From positions 1 to 49,729 of the forward strand of contig JACQNE010000003.1 in the NCBI GenBank assembly GCA_016203205.1: a stretch of DNA of 49,729 nucleotides. The letters are read 5' to 3'. Origin of the DNA: Candidatus Woesearchaeota archaeon. Lineage in GTDB: Archaea > Nanobdellota > Nanobdellia > Woesearchaeales > GW2011-AR9. Below, in pieces: positions 7,219 to 43,731 of the stretch (its first letter is position 1; every line of letters starts with the position of its first letter). Both the position numbers and the translations under genes were made by a program. The notes beneath the pieces were generated by a model, which did not search any database, was not told where the DNA came from, and worked only from the letters and a program-made list of their open reading frames with translations.

Positions 7219-7955
7219 TATTCTGTTTCTGGTGAATTCTTTTTTAAATGTTTGCCCATAATTCTGGCCATTACTTTTTCTGCATCTGCTTTAACACCCC
7301 GCTTCTGGAAATATCGCACAATATTTCCCACGTCCCTCACTAATAATTCCTGTGAGTTCGGCGCTTTTGTCAGCGTTGCCTGTGAGAAATCGATGAAATA
7401 AGGTTTCTCCCGATAATTTAAAATATTAAATGAAGAAAGATCCCCGTGAATCAATCCTTTTTTGTATAATTTTGTCATCCCGCTCACGACCTCATCATAG
7501 AACTTCTTCGGGTTTTGCGGCGGTGCGTCTTTCAGCGGCGGCGCCGGTTCTTCATCCCCGATAAATTCTTCGATAATGATGTGGTTCAGCCAGTGCAGCG
7601 GTTTTGGGGAATAGATACCCGCTTCCACCGCTCGATGCAGGTTTTTGAACTCACGCTGCGCCCAGGCTAAGATGATTTGTCTGCGGTGTTGTTGTAGATA
7701 TTGATACCGTGGATCTTTACGGATGTAATCAAACATCTTCAGGAAATTTGCCGGTTGGATAAAATAAATCTTAACAATCACTTTTTTCTCATCTTTTTTT
7801 GCGACAAAGACGCTGCTTTCCTTGCCTACGGTTAATGGGCTGACTAGTTCATCAAACGCCCCTTTGCTTTCTAATTCGAAAAGTGTTCTATTTGTAAATT
7901 CATCAAAGACACCTTTGATTGTCTTAAAGCGTTCCTGATACGTGAATTGGGTCAT
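7218..7955 (-). CDS. rio1: RIO-type serine protein kinase
   Basis: VGKESSVFVA (P-loop equivalent), LIHGDLSSFNIL (catalytic loop) and IDFSQA (metal-binding loop) are present. Confidence 0.85.
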   Translation of the reverse strand: MTQFTYQERFKTIKGVFDEFTNRTLFELESKGAFDELVSPLTVGKESSVFVAKKDEKKVIVKIYFIQPANFLKMFDYIRKDPRYQYLQQHRRQIILAWAQREFKNLHRAVEAGIYSPKPLHWLNHIIIEEFIGDEEPAPPLKDAPPQNPKKFYDEVVSGMTKLYKKGLIHGDLSSFNILNYREKPYFIDFSQATLTKAPNSQELLVRDVGNIVRYFQKRGVKADAEKVMARIMGKHLKKNSPETE

Positions 7956-8827: not shown

Positions 8828-8892
8828 TGTATTTGTTTAGAGAACTTTGCAGATAAAATATTGAATTATGCAAGGTTCTCTAAACAAATACA
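8828..8892. repeat. 65-bp palindromic element with 18-bp perfect arms
   Basis: tgtatttgtttagagaac ... gttctctaaacaaataca. The terminal tgtatttgttt is shared with the elements at 14462 and 49506. Confidence 0.6.
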
Positions 8893-11363: not shown

Positions 11364-12707
11364 ATGGTGTTTGATGTCATTATCGGCCGTTCCCGGAAAG
11401 ATGTTGAAAAACATGGCCAGCAAGGGACAATTCTCATCGGCAAACAATACGTCCAGATGGGCCAGACCGTCTCACTCTCCAACCCCGTGTATCTCGACGT
11501 TGCCGGCGCGCATGTTCTTTTTATTGTCGGAAAGAGAGGATCGGGAAAGTCTTACTCGCTCGGCGCCATCGCCGAAGGCCTTGCTGACCTGCCTCTCGAA
11601 ATCAGGCAAAACCTTTCCATTATCCTGCTGGATACCATGGGTATTTATTGGACAATGAAATATCCTAACTATCAGGATATAGGCTTATTAAAAGATTGGG
11701 GGATAGATCCTCGACCATTGGACGTTAAAATTTATACCCCCGCCGGATTTTACGGCCAGTATAAAGAATCGGGCATCCCTACCGATTTCCCTTTCTCCCT
11801 GCGCCCTATCGATGTTGACCCTCTCGACTGGTGCACAGCTTTTTCCATCCAGCCAAATTCGGCAGAAGGCGTGCTGATCACCAAGATTATCCAGCAGCTG
11901 AACGGCAAAGAAGAATCCTATGACCTGGATCAACTGATTCTGCTCATCAAAAAAGATACCGAAAGCGATCACGTCGTTAAAAGTATCGTTGTTAACCAAT
12001 TTGAAAAAGCAAAAGGCTGGGAAATTTTTTCCAAAGAAGGAACTCCGTTGAAAGAACTGATTGCAGGGGGTCAGGTAACCGTTCTTGACGTTTCCCCTTA
12101 TGCGACGATGTCTTCTGGCTGGGAAATTAAGTCTCTCGTCGTCGGTCTGATCTGCCGCACCCTCTTTAATCAACGCATGCTCGCCCGCAAAACAGAAGAA
12201 TTCAAGACTGTTGATGCGGCCATGCATTATTTCACCAAAGATGTGGAAGAGAAGCTCAAAGAACCGTTAGTCTGGATCGGTCTTGATGAAGCTCATGAAT
12301 TGCTGCCCAAAGAAGGAAAGACGGCGGCAACAGATTCACTCATCACCATTTTGCGGGAAGGGCGCCAGCCTGGCATCTCACTCATTCTCGCTTCGCAGCA
12401 GCCGGGCAAGATCCATACCGATGTCCTGACTCAGGCAGACACAGTCATCGCCCATCGCCTGACGGCACAGATCGACGTTGAGGCCTTGCAGCAATTAACC
12501 CAGAGCTACATGCGTCAAGGCTTAGAAGAGGAGATCAACCATCTGCCACGGGTGACGGGAGCTGCCGTCATTTTCGACGATGCTAACGAGCGCATCTTTC
12601 CCGTGCAGATGCGTCCAAGATTTACGTGGCATGGCGGCGGTTCACCAACTGCGCTGAAAGAGAAGAAAGATTCTGGAGAAAAGAGATTAAGAGAATTGGA
12701 TATTTGA
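11364..12707 (+). CDS. HerA/FtsK-like P-loop ATPase (DUF87-type)
   Basis: Walker A GKRGSGKS and Walker B LVWIGLDEAHELL are present, along with a later ILASQQPGKI...AHRL segment. No NurA-like partner is adjacent. Confidence 0.7.
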   Translation: MVFDVIIGRSRKDVEKHGQQGTILIGKQYVQMGQTVSLSNPVYLDVAGAHVLFIVGKRGSGKSYSLGAIAEGLADLPLEIRQNLSIILLDTMGIYWTMKYPNYQDIGLLKDWGIDPRPLDVKIYTPAGFYGQYKESGIPTDFPFSLRPIDVDPLDWCTAFSIQPNSAEGVLITKIIQQLNGKEESYDLDQLILLIKKDTESDHVVKSIVVNQFEKAKGWEIFSKEGTPLKELIAGGQVTVLDVSPYATMSSGWEIKSLVVGLICRTLFNQRMLARKTEEFKTVDAAMHYFTKDVEEKLKEPLVWIGLDEAHELLPKEGKTAATDSLITILREGRQPGISLILASQQPGKIHTDVLTQADTVIAHRLTAQIDVEALQQLTQSYMRQGLEEEINHLPRVTGAAVIFDDANERIFPVQMRPRFTWHGGGSPTALKEKKDSGEKRLRELDI

Positions 12708-12817
12708 GGGAAAATGACCCCAGCGGATAACTCCCCTGATCATGGTCATCACAAGGGCATGCTGCGCTGGGTTTACTCTTCAAAATTGATTATCTTTTAA
12801 AAAACTATCTACGGTTT

Positions 12818-13031
12818 GGCACAATTCGAGAAGTGAGTGATATTACTAAAAGTAGGAGAGTGCTGCAGGCCGTTCGGTCAGGCGAAAACCGGATAGAACA
12901 AAACACTTCTCACAAGATTGTGATTCGATAGTTGGTTTTCGCTCCAACATCTTTGGGAAATAGCACTTCTGACCGAACATCGTGGCCGAGCAGCACTCTC
13001 CGCCGTTATCACTCAGAAAAGGGATTGTGCC
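12818..13031. mobile_element. MITE family B-related, copy B2 (214 bp)
   Basis: Its TIR ggcacaattcgagaagtgagtgata / tatcactcagaaaagggattgtgcc is shared with B1, but the interior differs. An exact 8-bp tacggttt lies on both sides (12810-12817 and 13032-13039). Confidence 0.8.
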
Positions 13032-13039
13032 TACGGTTT

Positions 13040-13203
13040 GGCACTGTAGAAAAAGTCCTCCTGGCCATTGACCGCGGCGAAAACCAGTTGTGTTTAAGTT
13101 TATAGAACCAGTTATTTAATCTTATTCTTTTCGCACCCGTTCCAGCAGATCACTCCTCGCGGTCAATCTTGAGGCCAAGCAGACGACTTTTTCTATAGAG
13201 CCC
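13040..13203. mobile_element. MITE family C (164 bp), abutting B2
   Basis: TIR is ggcactgtagaaaaagtc / gactttttctatagagcc(c). It is flanked by tacggttt at 13032-13039 and again at 13204-13211. End fragments of the same family lie at about 21108-21137 and 24421-24443. Confidence 0.75.
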
Positions 13204-14390
13204 TACGGTTTCCATTCTTCTTTCAATTCGCAATATCTTAATCCTTGATCCTTTGTCCAGACAAGATAGAGATCGTCCAAAGAGGGCACTCCCTCAACTT
13301 CCGTATCCACCACTGATTTTTGTCCGGTAACCAGATTATATGCTTCTAACTGATTTCCTGCGACCCGCGCGGCGAGTGTCCTGCCATTAAATGCGCCGTT
13401 GGTAGTATAATCTTGGAGAGAAGAAAATAATTCGAACACATCATCCCAGATAAAATCGTATAGCATCAGCTTGATTGTTCCATCGGCTTCGTATCGTGAA
13501 AAAAGCAGCGCGTTATCTTTGACTAAAGGGCTGTAATCATTTGTTCCTTCCGGTTGGGGAAGAAAGAAGAGCGACTCATCGATAAACCTCCAGAGATAGA
13601 TCGCAGATCCAGCGTTCTTATTTTTCCCGGCAAAGGCAATCGTTTCGTGATCAAAAACGATGTTGGCTGCTCCTGAATCGAGAACAATAGCTGCAACTTC
13701 TTCATCAAAAGAAGCGTTACCAACAACCATCTTTAGGGCATGATCTAAGGTAACATACAAAGCATTGTCGATATCGGCGGGGCATAATCCATCATAAACG
13801 ACTTCTCCAGAGATCAAATTAATCATCTGGCAATTGCCCGGTAGTGTCGTTCCTGAATAGACTCCAGACAGATGATGACTTTCCAGGCGCAGCTTCTCTC
13901 CCTTCAACGGGGCAAGAGAGACAATCTTTTTCCCGGGGATGTCCAGCAGGCTTATCTCTTTGTCCTTGTTCTCAAAAGCGATCGTATAATCCGCTACGAC
14001 GGGACCAAAGTATCCACCATTCTTCCCGGAGAGAATCTCAATCGAATCACAGAGGCAGGGCGAACTCTCGTCGCAAGACATACTCTCCGGAACACGCTTT
14101 TCCGGAAGCGCTTCTTCCCCATAAACTCTCTCCGTTTCAGGAAGCCCCCGTCCGGTCTTTGTTTCTGAGGGGATCGGGACTTCGGGAATCGTGAGAACAT
14201 TGTCCTCATTTTCCGGGTTAACATCAATATATCCCTGATGAATCACACTCGTTATTGCATCGGGATTGCCATCAACATATTTTTCTATTTCCTCTTTCTT
14301 TGTCCCGGCGGTGCAAGCAGAAAAGACAAGCGCAGCTATCCCTGCCGCAACAGTTTTTTTGATTATCGGATGAATATATCGCTCCAGCAT
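13203..14390 (-). CDS. hypothetical secreted protein with lipobox-like signal
   Basis: From the ATG at 14390 the N-terminus reads MLERYIHPIIKKTVAAGIAALVFSAC (basic n-region, hydrophobic core, then SAC). No recognisable domain follows. Confidence 0.5.
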   Translation of the reverse strand: MLERYIHPIIKKTVAAGIAALVFSACTAGTKKEEIEKYVDGNPDAITSVIHQGYIDVNPENEDNVLTIPEVPIPSETKTGRGLPETERVYGEEALPEKRVPESMSCDESSPCLCDSIEILSGKNGGYFGPVVADYTIAFENKDKEISLLDIPGKKIVSLAPLKGEKLRLESHHLSGVYSGTTLPGNCQMINLISGEVVYDGLCPADIDNALYVTLDHALKMVVGNASFDEEVAAIVLDSGAANIVFDHETIAFAGKNKNAGSAIYLWRFIDESLFFLPQPEGTNDYSPLVKDNALLFSRYEADGTIKLMLYDFIWDDVFELFSSLQDYTTNGAFNGRTLAARVAGNQLEAYNLVTGQKSVVDTEVEGVPSLDDLYLVWTKDQGLRYCELKEEWKP

Positions 14391-30311: not shown

Positions 30312-31259
30312 ATGACACAATTAGATTTGTTAGTCGTTAGCAATGCCATCACGGATAAGGTTTACCATGTCAGTGCTGCTGTTCTTCAGGGTCTAGATTT
30401 ACGTCGTGGGGCAGAGCATCGTGCTGCGCTTCGTTCACAGATAGAAGAAAAACTAAAGGATATTCCTAAAGCCTACGAAAGCCCTGCCGGCTCGCCGGCC
30501 AATGTTGGATTTTCTGCTGCCGTTTTGGGAGCGAGAGTTGGTCTTATCGGTTCGCTCGGCGGCGATCATCTCGGTACGAAATATCGAGAGATGCTGGGCA
30601 GATACGCAGTTGCTGACCACACTCAACTTTCCACTACTTACCCCAGTGGTGTTTGTTATACGTTGATTACTGAAGATGGGGAACGGACATTTCTCAATCT
30701 GATGAACGCCGCTCCCCATTTTGATTTAGACCAAGCACCAATTTCGGCAAAGATCATCCATACTTCCTGTTATGAGATTGTGGACAAAGAAAAAGAGTTC
30801 ATCGGTTATCTTCAAAGAGCCAAAAAAGCAGGCGCCAAGATAAGTCTGGATCTCGCTGATCCGCATACGTGTCATAAGATCGGCAATGGTCAGACGATGC
30901 GGGCTATTCTGGATCTTACTGACATTCTCTTTGCCTCTCCGGAAGAATATGCCGCTGCTGTCGGGAAGGAATTTGATTCTTTCTCTGAACATCCTTGCAA
31001 TAACCAGGTGGTGTGTTTAAAATTGGGAAAACGAGGATCTCGCGTCTTGGCAGAGGGGATTGATCTCCCCATTCCGATTGTTTCAACAACCGTGATCAAC
31101 ACCAATGGCGCGGGTGATGGCTATGCTGCCGGCTTCCTCTTTGCCTACCTTCAGAATACGGATTTAGCCATGTGCGGGATGTATGGCAGTTCTGTCGCCT
31201 CCCAGATCGTTGGGCAGGTCGCAGCAAGCCTGCCTCTAAACCAAGAAGTACGTATTTAG
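30312..31259 (+). CDS. PfkB-family carbohydrate/nucleoside kinase
   Basis: GSPANV near the N-terminus and NTNGAGDGYAAGF near the C-terminus are PfkB signatures. The last three codons and the stop lie inside MITE A4. Confidence 0.8.
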   Translation: MTQLDLLVVSNAITDKVYHVSAAVLQGLDLRRGAEHRAALRSQIEEKLKDIPKAYESPAGSPANVGFSAAVLGARVGLIGSLGGDHLGTKYREMLGRYAVADHTQLSTTYPSGVCYTLITEDGERTFLNLMNAAPHFDLDQAPISAKIIHTSCYEIVDKEKEFIGYLQRAKKAGAKISLDLADPHTCHKIGNGQTMRAILDLTDILFASPEEYAAAVGKEFDSFSEHPCNNQVVCLKLGKRGSRVLAEGIDLPIPIVSTTVINTNGAGDGYAAGFLFAYLQNTDLAMCGMYGSSVASQIVGQVAASLPLNQEVRI

Positions 31260-31501
31260 TTAAGTCTGTGCGGGCTTGGTCAAGATGGCCTGCCGAACGT
31301 TGCTGTTGGACAGAAAGATAATTCTCGCTCATCTCTGAGTATAGTTCTGGAGAGAAGTTGATTACACTTTCTGGGCGAGACGAGGCAGGCCGGCCTGCCC
31401 ATGCATAGACTTAAAGAAAATCCTGAAAAGAGGCTACAAGAAATACAACAGAGATTGTATTTCTGTACCGAAATGAAATAGTTTTTTCATGTAATACGTA
31501 C
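31248..31501 (-). mobile_element. MITE family A, copy A4 (inverted), carrying an 80-bp nested insert
   Basis: gtacgtatttagttaagtctgtgc...gcatagacttaa[80 bp]tacgtac. The interior aligns with A2 and A3. Confidence 0.85.
31415..31494 (-). mobile_element. nested element Y (short relative of X) in the MITE A4 terminus
   Basis: Sits at the same ttaa position of the family A terminus as X. It shares agaaaatcctgaaaag at one end and gaaatgaaat...tcat at the other. Confidence 0.6.
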
Positions 31502-31509
31502 TGCTCGTC

Positions 31510-31665
31510 GGCATAATCTTTTTTTGAGTGATGGTGAGCACACCAGTGGAATGACTAGATTTAAGAAATTTCAGAGACACAGAAGAAAATCGGACCGGTT
31601 CCCAGATTATAGCTATCCTTCAGCGACTATTTGGCTTCACTATCACTCACCTTTTTGATTGTGCC
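31510..31665 (-). mobile_element. MITE family B, copy B3 (inverted relative to B1)
   Basis: ggcataatc...gattgtgcc. The interior is the reverse complement of B1 (gaaaatcggaccggttcccagattatagctatccttcagcgac). The flanking octamers tgctcgtc and tgttcatc match at 6 of 8 positions. Confidence 0.8.
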
Positions 31666-43257: not shown

Positions 43258-43425
43258 GTGGGCGTGCCGGAGCGGTCAAACGGGATAGTTCGTTTGGCAA
43301 AGGTGCTAAATGAGTCCATACTCAAGTCGTTTGGGTTGTGAGGCTTCCCTCAGAGGTCGATGAAAAACCGTGAGCCATCTATTGGCTTAGTGCCTACGCA
43401 GGTTCAAATCCTGCCGCCCACACCA
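43258..43425 (+). tRNA. class-II-like tRNA (Ser/Leu-type D-arm) with about 80 nt of intervening sequence; anticodon not resolved
   Basis: Acceptor GTGGGCG/CGCCCAC is 7/7 paired. D-arm is CCGG-AGCGGTCAA-ACGG. T-arm is GCAGG-TTCAAAT-CCTGC. A73 and an encoded CCA are followed by T7. The span is 168 nt against the ~88 nt expected for a class II tRNA. Confidence 0.6.
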
Positions 43426-43491: not shown

Positions 43492-43533
43492 GTGCCTACG
43501 CAGGTTCAAATCCTGCCGCCCACACCATTTTTT
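43492..43533 (+). repeat. exact 42-bp duplicate of the tRNA 3' end (T-arm, acceptor 3' strand, CCA, T-run)
   Basis: gtgcctacgcaggttcaaatcctgccgcccacaccatttttt is identical at 43390-43431 and 43492-43533. No matching 5' acceptor strand precedes the second copy. Confidence 0.9.
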
Positions 43534-43731
43534 AATTCCCGTCTGGGTAGATCGGCTCAAAAATAAGAAACTTTAACTTGATGACATTGGGGGGCAACCA
43601 CCCCGCAACGCCCTTGTTGTCAGATTGCGGGCGTTCGACTTTATGCTGCTGAGTCCTCTACAGGGACAGGCTCTTAATCGTGAGGTGATGAGTTAGCAAA
43701 ACTTATTATATCCTAAGATAATCTATTGATA

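Follow-up and report, generated by a model that had tools for sequence, protein, structure and literature searches.

The yeast elements Ty3 and Ty1 and the Dictyostelium TRE elements integrate by tethering to the Pol III initiation complex, as has been shown biochemically; TFIIIB consists of TBP and the TFB homologue Brf, and stacks of LTRs form upstream of tRNA genes. To our knowledge, integration into safe sites guided by an initiation complex has so far been described for eukaryotic retroelements. Tn7 inserts at attTn7, just downstream of glmS, where the dedicated selector TnsD directs it to a single site and target immunity blocks a second insertion. IS30, IS21 and IS911 form tandems by inserting beside a resident end, with the same IS recognizing its own ends. 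Elements of the IS903 group of the IS5 family (ISfinder) have GGC termini, a 9-bp duplication, a length of about 1 kb and a DDE transposase of about 300 aa; we know of loose target preferences only for IS903, none of them promoter-anchored.

Here, we describe a stack of two MITEs, B2 and C, in a tiny groundwater archaeon. In its lineage, about a third of MITE ends, as well as autonomous IS copies, occupy a single exact register upstream of core promoters, which different families re-use. As with Ty3, Ty1 and TRE, elements keep a constant spacing to a promoter element of the kind bound by TBP and a TFB-like factor, one promoter is re-used by several families, older copies appear to be pushed outward and decay, and the site is safe in that it spares the gene. 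However, those are retrotransposons with integrases, whereas the elements described here are DDE DNA transposons and MITEs of an archaeon, for which spacing suggests tethering. As with IS30, IS21 and IS911, the second element adjoins a resident end and the spacer equals the duplication length, but here the ends of neighbors in a stack are unrelated, and it is the promoter side that stacking follows. The likeness to Tn7 is that insertion occurred exactly at a gene end, left the gene intact and apparently took its guidance from a feature beyond the bases that were duplicated; unlike those of Tn7, the sites in this lineage number in the hundreds and are used repeatedly.

High MITE density has been noted in Woesearchaea genomes, and archaeal maxima of 105–146 per Mb have been given (PMC11602168). 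Neither that study nor a review (PMC10969869) mentions tandem or nested MITEs or promoter-anchored insertion. Our metagenome-assembled genome (MAG) of Woesearchaeota (DPANN), G000, exceeds those maxima: its 743 kb carry about 200 MITE copies, or ∼270 per Mb (202 non-overlapping nhmmer matches to nine families, 25 kb in total), and contains no repeat longer than 400 nt.

The window, a contig stretch of 49,729 nt from this MAG, contains B2 (214 nt) and C (163 nt) between a small RNA gene and the 3′ end of a gene for a 395-aa protein (Table 1). A first-pass annotation, made from the sequence alone, had reported three exact copies of the octamer TACGGTTT around the two elements. All three are where it placed them, but the exact repeat, as read from the sequence, is the 9-mer CTACGGTTT, whose copies bracket B2 and C. 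Element C is present as annotated, except that it ends at 13202 rather than 13203. The rightmost octamer, said to hold the last two codons of the gene and part of its stop, does contain the codons, but the 9-mer includes the whole stop codon (AAA CCG TAG). Because the duplication regenerates these bases, the 395-aa gene keeps its C terminus and stop and the promoter remains intact, which bears out the earlier view that insertion occurred at a gene end without destroying the gene. Both elements begin with GGCAC, as had been noted; since the consensus of the C family is GGCTC, the C copy at the locus has a variant end. The C at 13031 doubles as the last base of B2 and the first base of the second 9-mer copy.

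Table 1. Features of the B2–C locus (positions in the window)
Feature	Position	Strand	Remarks
Small non-coding RNA gene	12708–12774	−	Hairpin with GA-rich (K-loop-like) apical loop
TATA-like box	12795–12802	−	TTTTAAAA on the minus strand, within a T6A4 run (12795–12804)
Six-base spacer at BRE position	12803–12808	−	ATAGTT on the minus strand
Target duplication, copy 1	12809–12817	.	CTACGGTTT, promoter side
MITE B2	12818–13031	+	214 nt; ends GGCACAATTCGAGAAGTGAGTGATA / TATCACTCAGAAAAGGGATTGTGCC; nested inner stems
Target duplication, copy 2	13031–13039	.	TACGGTTT is the 8-bp B-type duplicate
MITE C	13040–13202	+	163 nt; ends GGCACTGTAGAAAAAGTC / GACTTTTTCTATAGAGCC
Target duplication, copy 3	13203–13211	.	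CTACGGTTT; AAA CCG TAG on the minus strand
Gene for 395-aa protein	13203–14390	−	3′ end kept by the duplication

The 395-aa protein, for which Pfam gives no match, begins with a signal/lipobox-like segment (..ALVFSAC..), and its orthologues in congeners are just 44%–81% identical. As the junction between this gene and C is also present in L007 and L008, two Logan assemblies that are independent of each other, it is not an artifact of MAG assembly. Exact protein matches led only to short contigs that break inside the MITEs. On one contig, an identical HerA lies beside a different allele of the neighboring gene, without a MITE.

B2 and C are true MITEs. B2 at the locus is a full-length nhmmer match (E = 4e-68) with inverted-repeat arms at 12818–12842 and 13007–13031, and C (E = 9e-47) has arms at ∼13040–13060 and 13182–13202; element ends are conserved between copies, as in the terminal inverted repeats of MITEs, and the interiors hold only short spurious ORFs. 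Three further solo copies of B2 in G000 each have 8-bp duplications, the length found for B-type (B1/B2) copies generally, several of them perfect (examples are ATTTTGGC, GAACTGCC, GCAGGGAG, ACTGAAAC and GCTTCATC). Family C has about 14–17 near-full copies with 9-bp duplications, five of them perfect (examples are TACTTGACC, GAATTACAG, TTGTCTTTG and CTACGGTTT). Thus, like other prokaryotic MITEs, including the Sulfolobus SM elements and those of Haloquadratum, B2 and C are small (163–214 nt), noncoding, bounded by terminal inverted repeats and target duplications, and members of families with many dispersed intergenic copies; ends shared with an autonomous IS were found for C.

The promoter side of the stack reads TTTTAAAA, 6 nt, CTACGGTTT, B2. 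The TATA-like box is the predicted promoter of the small RNA gene and, by its position, the site at which the MITEs docked: it lies ∼28 nt upstream of the small RNA, a distance kept in three other genomes (G001, G002 and G003), and its offset from the MITE end equals the genome-wide peak described below. The small RNA gene occurs once per genome in 16 of 101 genomes of the family, in 10 genera, and also adjoins the 395-aa gene in G001, G002 and G003. Its consensus hairpin has 13 pairs, with two compensatory pairs among three sequences; a 1-nt indel excludes a coding function, and Rfam contains no family for the locus region or the conserved small RNA.

How general is this spacing? Outside MITE ends, TATA-like motifs start at offsets 13–17 in 141 instances, compared with about 1–2 per offset elsewhere. 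In G000, 85 of 288 MITE flanks (about 30%) are docked, that is, the duplication is followed by 6 nt and a TATA box of a promoter firing outward, and 74 of the 85 lead into an outward-reading ORF of 80 codons or more, which starts 20–39 nt past the TATA in 44 cases. The same offset peak is seen in the sister species G002, so that constant spacing to a core promoter element was found in two genomes. Docked copies carry almost no base information within the duplication, and beyond it a BRE/TATA-like profile follows: the six bases before the TATA are purine- and A-rich, like an archaeal BRE, to which the ATAGTT at the locus is a weak match, and the profile moves by 1 nt between families with 8-bp and 9-bp duplications. 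Family D prefers A/T-rich octamers. For family C, 15 of 24 3′ flanks are docked genome-wide versus 2 of 18 5′ flanks; counter to our main reading, C at the locus and a C-type element in G002 have the unusual orientation, 5′ end toward the TATA. Nor are the remaining three B2 copies of G000 docked, although one B2 copy in G002 is.

Stacks recur. Of 134 neighboring facing ends in G000, those less than 200 bp apart are separated by 4 (twice), 7, 8 (five times), 9 (twice), 10, 36, 127 and 169 bp; 11 junctions therefore have facing MITE ends 4–10 bp apart. In 383 kb of G002, the gaps are 6 (three times), 8 (five times), 9 (twice) and 24 bp (twice), with 10 junctions at 6–9 bp. A B1–A stack on contig C32 of G000 has the exact triple ACTGAAAC, and a three-element stack in G002 reads A remnant, AAAAAAGC, B1, AAAAAAGC, F11, AAAAAAGC, 6 nt, TATA. 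These stacks pair families with unrelated ends (for example, GTACG... with GGCAC...), and the shared ends that characterize end-targeted tandem insertion are missing from B2–C, B1–A and A–B1–F11. Approximately 10 stacks consist of an intact element on the TATA side and a remnant on the far side, approximately four have both elements intact, and at most one is reversed. About nine TATA-linked stacks were seen, compared with 5–18 double hits expected from 85–100 docked insertions over 269–700 promoters.

Autonomous IS5-family ISs with GGCTCTGTAGAA ends, the same as those of C, are present in four genomes of other genera (G109, G059, G053 and G088). Three partner copies (L055, L053 and L052) are 0.9–1.0 kb, have ends GGCTCTG... 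and perfect 9-bp duplications, and encode a 275-aa DDE_Tnp_1 protein, at 1222–2046 in L055 (PF01609, E = 1e-15, above the cut-off). All three have a TATA-like box 6 nt past the duplication; in L055 and L053 this box is canonical, and in L052 it is weaker (TTTATGTA). The ends of C, Cp and F5 read GGCTCTGTAGAAAAAGTC or GGCTTTGTGTAAAAAGTC, with a 9-bp duplication, and fit the GGC termini and 9-bp duplication that we take to be IS903-group traits. By these features, C is assigned to an IS5-family lineage. It differs from IS903 in that its partner has archaeal hosts and is apparently promoter-anchored, and the subgroup is provisional, as the best NCBIfam match of the partner transposase, NF033579 (IS5 family), scores 131.6 bits against a curated cut-off of 140.

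For B, we found no transposase, and no autonomous element among about 180 B-type ends listed in eight genomes or near the 24 DDE_Tnp_1 genes inspected. A 2.1-kb pair of B-type ends in G006 proved to belong to two distinct MITEs of ∼100 nt, one on either side of ordinary genes. IS1595 (PF12762) elements in G017 and G004 have ends unrelated to B or C, and IS66-type ISs carry D/F9/A-like ends instead; the A, D and F9 ends belong to the latter type, as those of C belong to the IS5 type. No transposase at all was found in the genus of the MAG, and those of ISL3 (PF01610) and IS256 (PF00872) are absent from all four of its genomes.

Comparison with relatives, which the first-pass annotation had proposed, did not yield the empty site but did reveal a one-element state: G002 and two JGI metagenome contigs have only a C-type derivative at this site, in the same orientation and with the cut offset by 1 nt. 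Since the cuts differ by 1 nt and no shared derived substitutions were seen, the C elements of G000 and G002 are probably independent insertions rather than orthologous, which would make three insertions (C, B2 and the G002 element) within 1 nt. The joined-flank 24-mer had no match in JGI metagenome contigs, a gene-end 20-mer search there returned just the G002-type state and one chance match, and no within-species polymorphism was found at the site; the order of events is therefore inferred. Although the sequence of the locus by itself fits a B2-first order equally well, C probably came first, with B2, next to the TATA, the younger and the promoter-distal C the older.

The reading we favor, to which we assign a probability of about 75%, is that two independent transpositions entered the same few bases and that elements dock at a fixed promoter register and consequently stack. 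Two MITEs would share the same 9 bases because mobile elements here insert at a fixed spot just upstream of promoters. Target choice would ignore the duplicated bases and read position: between the upstream duplication and the TATA there would be 6 nt (the BRE position), and transcription from that promoter would lead away from the element. Once one element is in place, its TATA-side duplicate would still lie at this distance, and the next element docking at that promoter would re-cut this duplicate and displace the earlier element outward. The resulting stack would read gene end, duplication, C (older), duplication, B2 (younger), duplication, 6 nt, TATA, small RNA gene. We infer that the anchor may be the promoter-bound TBP/TFB complex or its DNA bend rather than a transposase that reads BRE/TATA, although direct reading fits the data equally well. 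More tentatively, and with some doubt, it is possible that Woesearchaeota DDE transposases of at least two families (IS5- and IS66-type) are directed to the upstream border of BRE/TATA bound by TBP/TFB, as an archaeal DNA-transposon counterpart of Ty3/TFIIIB tethering.

Our initial hypothesis was that a transposase is bound by, or drawn to, the terminal repeat of a resident MITE and inserts next to it, re-cutting the old duplication regardless of the promoter. Consistent with this, stacked elements are separated by one duplication length, and a correctly spaced TATA is missing from four or five stacks (C21:31505, with A and B1 8 bp apart; C34:20828, with mini-D and D 8 bp apart; C34:165; and G002 C2:152281). 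However, ends as unrelated as those joined in the stacks would not be recognizable by one end-binding transposase, a TATA lies at the canonical distance on exactly one side of most stacks, the element on that side is the intact one in about 10 of 10–11 informative cases, and chance re-use of promoters would yield about as many TATA-linked stacks as were seen, making extra attraction unneeded. We demoted this explanation because of the measured polarity and TATA spacing, and now consider it unlikely; the stacks without a TATA indicate that 8-bp spacing also arises from another cause, such as resident-end attraction or the A/T-rich targets of family D. It is still less probable that insertion is random and that a compact genome keeps only those insertions that spare stop codon and promoter. 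With a coding density of at least 83% and a native stop-to-TATA spacer of ∼6 nt at the locus, few registers would be tolerated, and a surviving insertion needs a duplication that spans the spacer. Yet registers that overlap BRE/TATA (offsets 0–12), or that in longer spacers lie further upstream, should also be tolerable, since the duplication regenerates whatever bases it covers, and they are almost empty; the exact 1-nt move of the peak between 8-bp and 9-bp families and the proximity of C, B2 and the G002 element likewise argue against survivorship.

Could the duplicated word itself be preferred, perhaps by one transposase acting twice? TACGGTTT occurs five times in the window against 0.96 expected (five or more in 0 of 100 shuffles), and family D does favor A/T-rich octamers, but the duplication itself accounts for three of the five octamers, B-type and C-type duplications lack a common consensus and their lengths differ, which makes this very improbable. 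Least credible, indeed close to negligible, is a single composite element with an internal octamer or an assembly chimera joining two repeats. Apart from the adjacency, nothing favors it: no second B2–C adjacency exists among the nhmmer copies of both families anywhere in G000, each family occurs alone elsewhere and so the pair is no composite unit, the C-type element stands alone at the site in G002 and the two metagenome contigs, the gene-to-C junction is reproduced in two independent assemblies, and analogous stacks are present on other contigs and in another genome. The earlier proposal that two different MITEs inserted in succession, with a duplicate from the first insertion serving as target for the second, is supported: both families are dispersed with their own duplications (8 bp for B, 9 bp for C, where a lack of 8-bp duplications had been named as contrary evidence), and the pair, which might always have traveled as a unit, is unique while the sister species has the C-type element only. 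The strong target preference it proposed is real, but is not for the octamer, as a genome-wide tally of B and C targets gave almost no consensus; the information lies in BRE/TATA, 6 nt beyond the duplication. Its suggestion that the same transposase acted twice is unlikely given the 8-bp duplications of B-type elements, the 9-bp duplications of C-type elements, the match of the latter elements to an IS5-family IS, and the unrelated ends joined in stacks.

Two MITEs with a common duplication are by themselves a minor curiosity; it is the explanation that gives them weight. If the TBP/TFB complex is the anchor, this would be a prokaryotic DNA-transposon case of safe-site integration guided by an initiation complex, and the 275-aa transposase would potentially offer programmable, promoter-anchored target choice. 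For annotation, caution is needed, as many intergenic spacers and gene C termini in these MAGs are made of MITE stacks, at which contigs break. If transposases are indeed guided by TBP/TFB, every promoter would be a reusable landing pad, and the sequence of elements in a stack such as B2–C would record successive invasions, with the youngest element beside the TATA. This simple rule for reading stacks as time series could be used to date and order transposon bursts in uncultured archaea. Docking would also help explain how a genome that is at least 83% coding tolerates ∼270 MITE copies per Mb.

The tandem of two MITEs at 12809-13211, B2 and C delimited by three copies of one repeat, has the layout given by the first-pass annotation. 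The octamer TACGGTTT occurs there in three copies as described, although the exact repeat takes in one more base, giving the 9-mer CTACGGTTT, and element C ends at 13202 (163 nt) instead of 13203. The rightmost copy does supply the last two codons of the 395-aa gene, but it includes the whole stop codon and not part of it (AAA CCG TAG on the minus strand). For TACGGTTT, 0.96 occurrences would be expected in the window; five are present, a count reached in 0 of 100 shuffles, and the junction of the gene with C was seen again in two independent Logan assemblies. On the minus strand the order is 395-aa gene (...AAA CCG TAG), C, AAACCGTAG, B2, AAACCGTAG, ATAGTT, TTTTAAAA, about 28 nt, hairpin RNA gene and HerA-like gene.

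Features at and around the B2/C tandem
Feature	Position	Strand	Remarks
Exact repeat CTACGGTTT	12809-12817, 13031-13039, 13203-13211		
MITE B2	12818-13031		214 nt
MITE C	13040-13202		163 nt
395-aa gene	13203-14390	minus	signal/lipobox-like N terminus
TATA-like box TTTTAAAA	12802-12795	minus	
Six-base spacer ATAGTT		minus	between duplication and TTTTAAAA
Hairpin RNA gene	12708-12774	minus	67 nt, about 28 nt past the TATA-like box
HerA-like gene	11364-12707		convergent

Two observations had been named as grounds for rejecting separate insertions: family copies lacking 8-bp duplications, and B2 plus C always occurring as one unit. Neither holds, since B1 and B2 copies carry 8-bp and C copies 9-bp duplications (perfect in five), and the two elements adjoin only here, B2 standing alone on contigs C4 (10153), C19 (4724) and C35 (6244) and C at 13 other sites. 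B2 and C are therefore two MITEs, and a single composite is ruled out.

The genome is a 743-kb archaeal MAG, 72% complete, whose 37 contigs include the window as C21. Among named genomes, groundwater “Candidatus Woesearchaeota” MAGs are closest to it, and its aIF5B is 95% identical to that of the RIFCSPLOWO2_01_FULL_44_20 record. All 220 repeated regions are at most 400 nt long, and profile searches yielded 202 non-overlapping MITE copies in nine families, with the ends GTACGTATTAAGT (A), GTATTTGTTTAGC (D), GTACGTATTTAGTT (F9), GGCTCTGTAGAAAAAGTC (C and Cp), GGCTTTGTGTAAAAAGTC (F5), GGCACAATCCGAAAAGTGAGTGAT (B1 and B2) and GGCTAATATGAAACCC (F11). A published survey places one Woesearchaea genome among the archaea with the highest MITE density (PMC11602168). 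Since many contigs begin or end within a MITE (e.g., C2, C4, C13, C20, C29, C33, C34 and C36), repeats are a main cause of the fragmentation of this MAG; likewise, Logan contigs from the same population break within element C. Mini-elements of 45-65 nt, hardly more than two fused D-type ends, lie at C34:20795-20988, C10:31916-31974 and 8828-8892 of the window, and at C36:8892-9149 an internally deleted D is nested in Cp, the junctions carrying a duplication of Cp model positions 51-62.

The tandem is one instance of recurrent stacking. When all family termini were mapped and the gap from each right end to the next left end was measured, the 134 neighbor pairs gave gaps of 4 (twice), 7, 8 (five times), 9 (twice), 10, 36, 127 and 169 bp, the rest being at least 200 bp. 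Contig C32 holds a second perfect triple, ACTGAAAC / B1 (7519-7671) / ACTGAAAC / A (7680-7854) / ACTGAAAC, in which B1 and A have unrelated ends. The gaps in the sister species G002 (383 kb) are 6 (three times), 8 (five times), 9 (twice) and 24 (twice) bp, and its contig C2 carries at 50478-50870 (L018/L019 region) the stack A remnant / AAAAAAGC / B1 / AAAAAAGC / F11 derivative / AAAAAAGC / gacatc / TTTTTAAAG. The stack thus ends in 6 nt (gacatc) and a TATA box (TTTTTAAAG), and only 24 nt are left of the A remnant, the most distal member.

What do these sites share? TATA-like motif starts, tallied outward from every complete MITE terminus, number 141 at offsets 13-17 against about 1-2 per offset elsewhere, and involve 85 of 288 flanks; the same peak is present in G002. 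Of these 85 docked flanks, in which the duplication and 6 nt precede the TATA box, 74 face an outward ORF of 80 codons or more, and in 44 of them it starts 20-39 nt past the TATA, the spacing expected of leaderless archaeal genes. Undocked flanks, in contrast, face such ORFs in 106 of 203 cases, with a flat distribution of starts, which argues that the docked boxes are real promoters. The duplicated bases had been proposed as a preferred target, but base counts show almost no information within them; past the duplication come an A/purine-rich hexamer at the BRE position and TTTWWAWA, and this profile moves one base as a whole between 8-bp and 9-bp families. The offset peak and base profile thus indicate that the promoter, not the octamer, is recognized. 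Selection among survivors could not by itself produce the peak: because the duplication regenerates the bases it covers, registers overlapping the BRE/TATA or further upstream should be tolerated, yet they are almost empty. Family D prefers octamers rich in A/T, and most of its insertions disregard TATA boxes, only 9 of 71 flanks being docked. The TATA lies beyond the 3′ end of family C in 15 of 24 flanks and beyond the 5′ end in 2 of 18, a bias that Cp, oriented by its own model, shows in reverse (8 of 12 versus 2 of 12); the C copies at the tandem locus in both genomes run against the family C rule.

At the tandem, the native spacer from stop codon to TATA is only about 6 nt, so that the docking register coincides with the last codons of the 395-aa gene, which the duplication rescues. 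The congeners G001-G003 conserve a TATA-like box at an equal distance from the RNA. Sixteen of 101 family genomes, from 10 genera, carry one copy each of the 67-nt RNA, which matches no Rfam family. Comparison of three sequences shows two compensatory pairs, and an indel breaks the reading frame. The RNA folds into a lower stem of 7 bp, internal loops and an upper stem of 6 bp, capped by an apical loop that contains UGAUGA and resembles a K-loop or H/ACA-type guide. The lipoprotein-like 395-aa gene has no Pfam match and evolves very fast, being 81%, 49% and 44% identical in congeners against 95% for the neighboring aIF5B (L002, L003, L004 and L005). Together with a metagenome contig that joins an identical HerA protein to a G001-type allele of this gene, this divergence points to allele replacement at a variable locus for a surface protein. 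Elsewhere in the window lies a tRNA-like gene (43259-43425) that both ARAGORN and Rfam miss. The pairing partner of its acceptor 5′ strand, GTGGGCG, is ...CGCCCACACCA, some 160 nt further downstream, which implies a long insert or an intron. After another 102 nt comes a further 3′ half of 46 nt (43492-43537), nearly identical and with its CCA encoded, which lacks an obvious 5′ half.

The autonomous counterpart of family C was found among DDE_Tnp_1 matches: an IS of 0.9-1.0 kb with ends GGCTCTGTAGAA... and a 275-aa transposase (PF01609, E=1e-15; best NCBIfam match the IS5-family NF033579, 131.6 bits, the cut-off being 140). The IS903 group of the IS5 family is marked by GGC ends together with a 9-bp duplication, and element C derives from an IS that is probably IS903-like. 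Three flank-complete autonomous copies have perfect 9-bp duplications (TTGACACTT, GGAAAAAAC and TATATTACA), each with a TATA-like box 6 nt past it, which argues that docking belongs to the transposition reaction of the autonomous element and does not arise from MITE survival. IS66-type ISs with D/F9-like ends occur in 13 of 101 family genomes (e.g., L036, GTACTTATTTAGCTG; L043, GTATTTGTTTAGCT). Links to ISL3, IS256 and IS1595 as transposase sources were excluded, and no autonomous B element was found among about 180 B-type ends in eight genomes or near 24 DDE_Tnp_1 genes.

Stacks could also form if resident MITE ends attracted newcomers. If 85-100 docked insertions are distributed over 269-700 promoters, chance should give 5-18 double hits, and about nine TATA-linked stacks are seen in the genome of the window; promoter re-use therefore accounts for these, and attraction is not needed. 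It may contribute, as may the A/T-rich target preference of family D, to the four or five TATA-less stacks (C21:31505, C34:165, C34:20828 and G002 C2:152281). The convergent spacer at 31248-31665 of the window consists purely of MITEs (A with a nested insert, 8 nt, B1) and lacks a TATA at docking distance, which means that this stack is not explained by promoter docking.

B2 and C are ordinary MITEs; what is unusual is a target rule that gives ordered stacks sharing one duplication. Full-text literature searches found neither promoter-anchored insertion nor shared-duplication stacks reported for archaeal IS or MITEs. In its logic, the rule most resembles Ty3/Ty1 integration, in which TFIIIB guides the elements and LTRs come to be stacked upstream of tRNA genes. 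TFIIIB comprises TBP plus a TFB homologue, and TBP/TFB may play a role in docking. In form, the stacks come closest to IS30/IS21 tandems and to Tn7 at the end of glmS. All of these systems, Ty3/Ty1 included, differ from the stacks described here.

In which order did the two elements arrive? Across both genomes, about 10 stacks pair an intact element on the TATA side with a remnant on the far side, about four have both elements intact, and at most one shows the reverse, a polarity that fits the newest element lying next to the TATA. On this basis, C would have inserted with the 9-bp duplication CTACGGTTT, and B2 would then have entered the TATA-side copy with the 8-bp duplication TACGGTTT. Had B2 come first, the sequence would be identical, but C would then have inserted about 230 nt away from the promoter. 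The proposed search for an empty site, made in JGI metagenome contigs, found none. G002 and two JGI metagenome contigs have an approximately 91-nt C-type deletion derivative alone at the site, in the same orientation, its duplication (GAAACCGTA/GAAACTATA) offset by 1 nt from that of the tandem. No derived substitutions common to both C elements are visible by eye, so they are probably independent hits. If so, three insertions would have occurred within 1 nt in two lineages.
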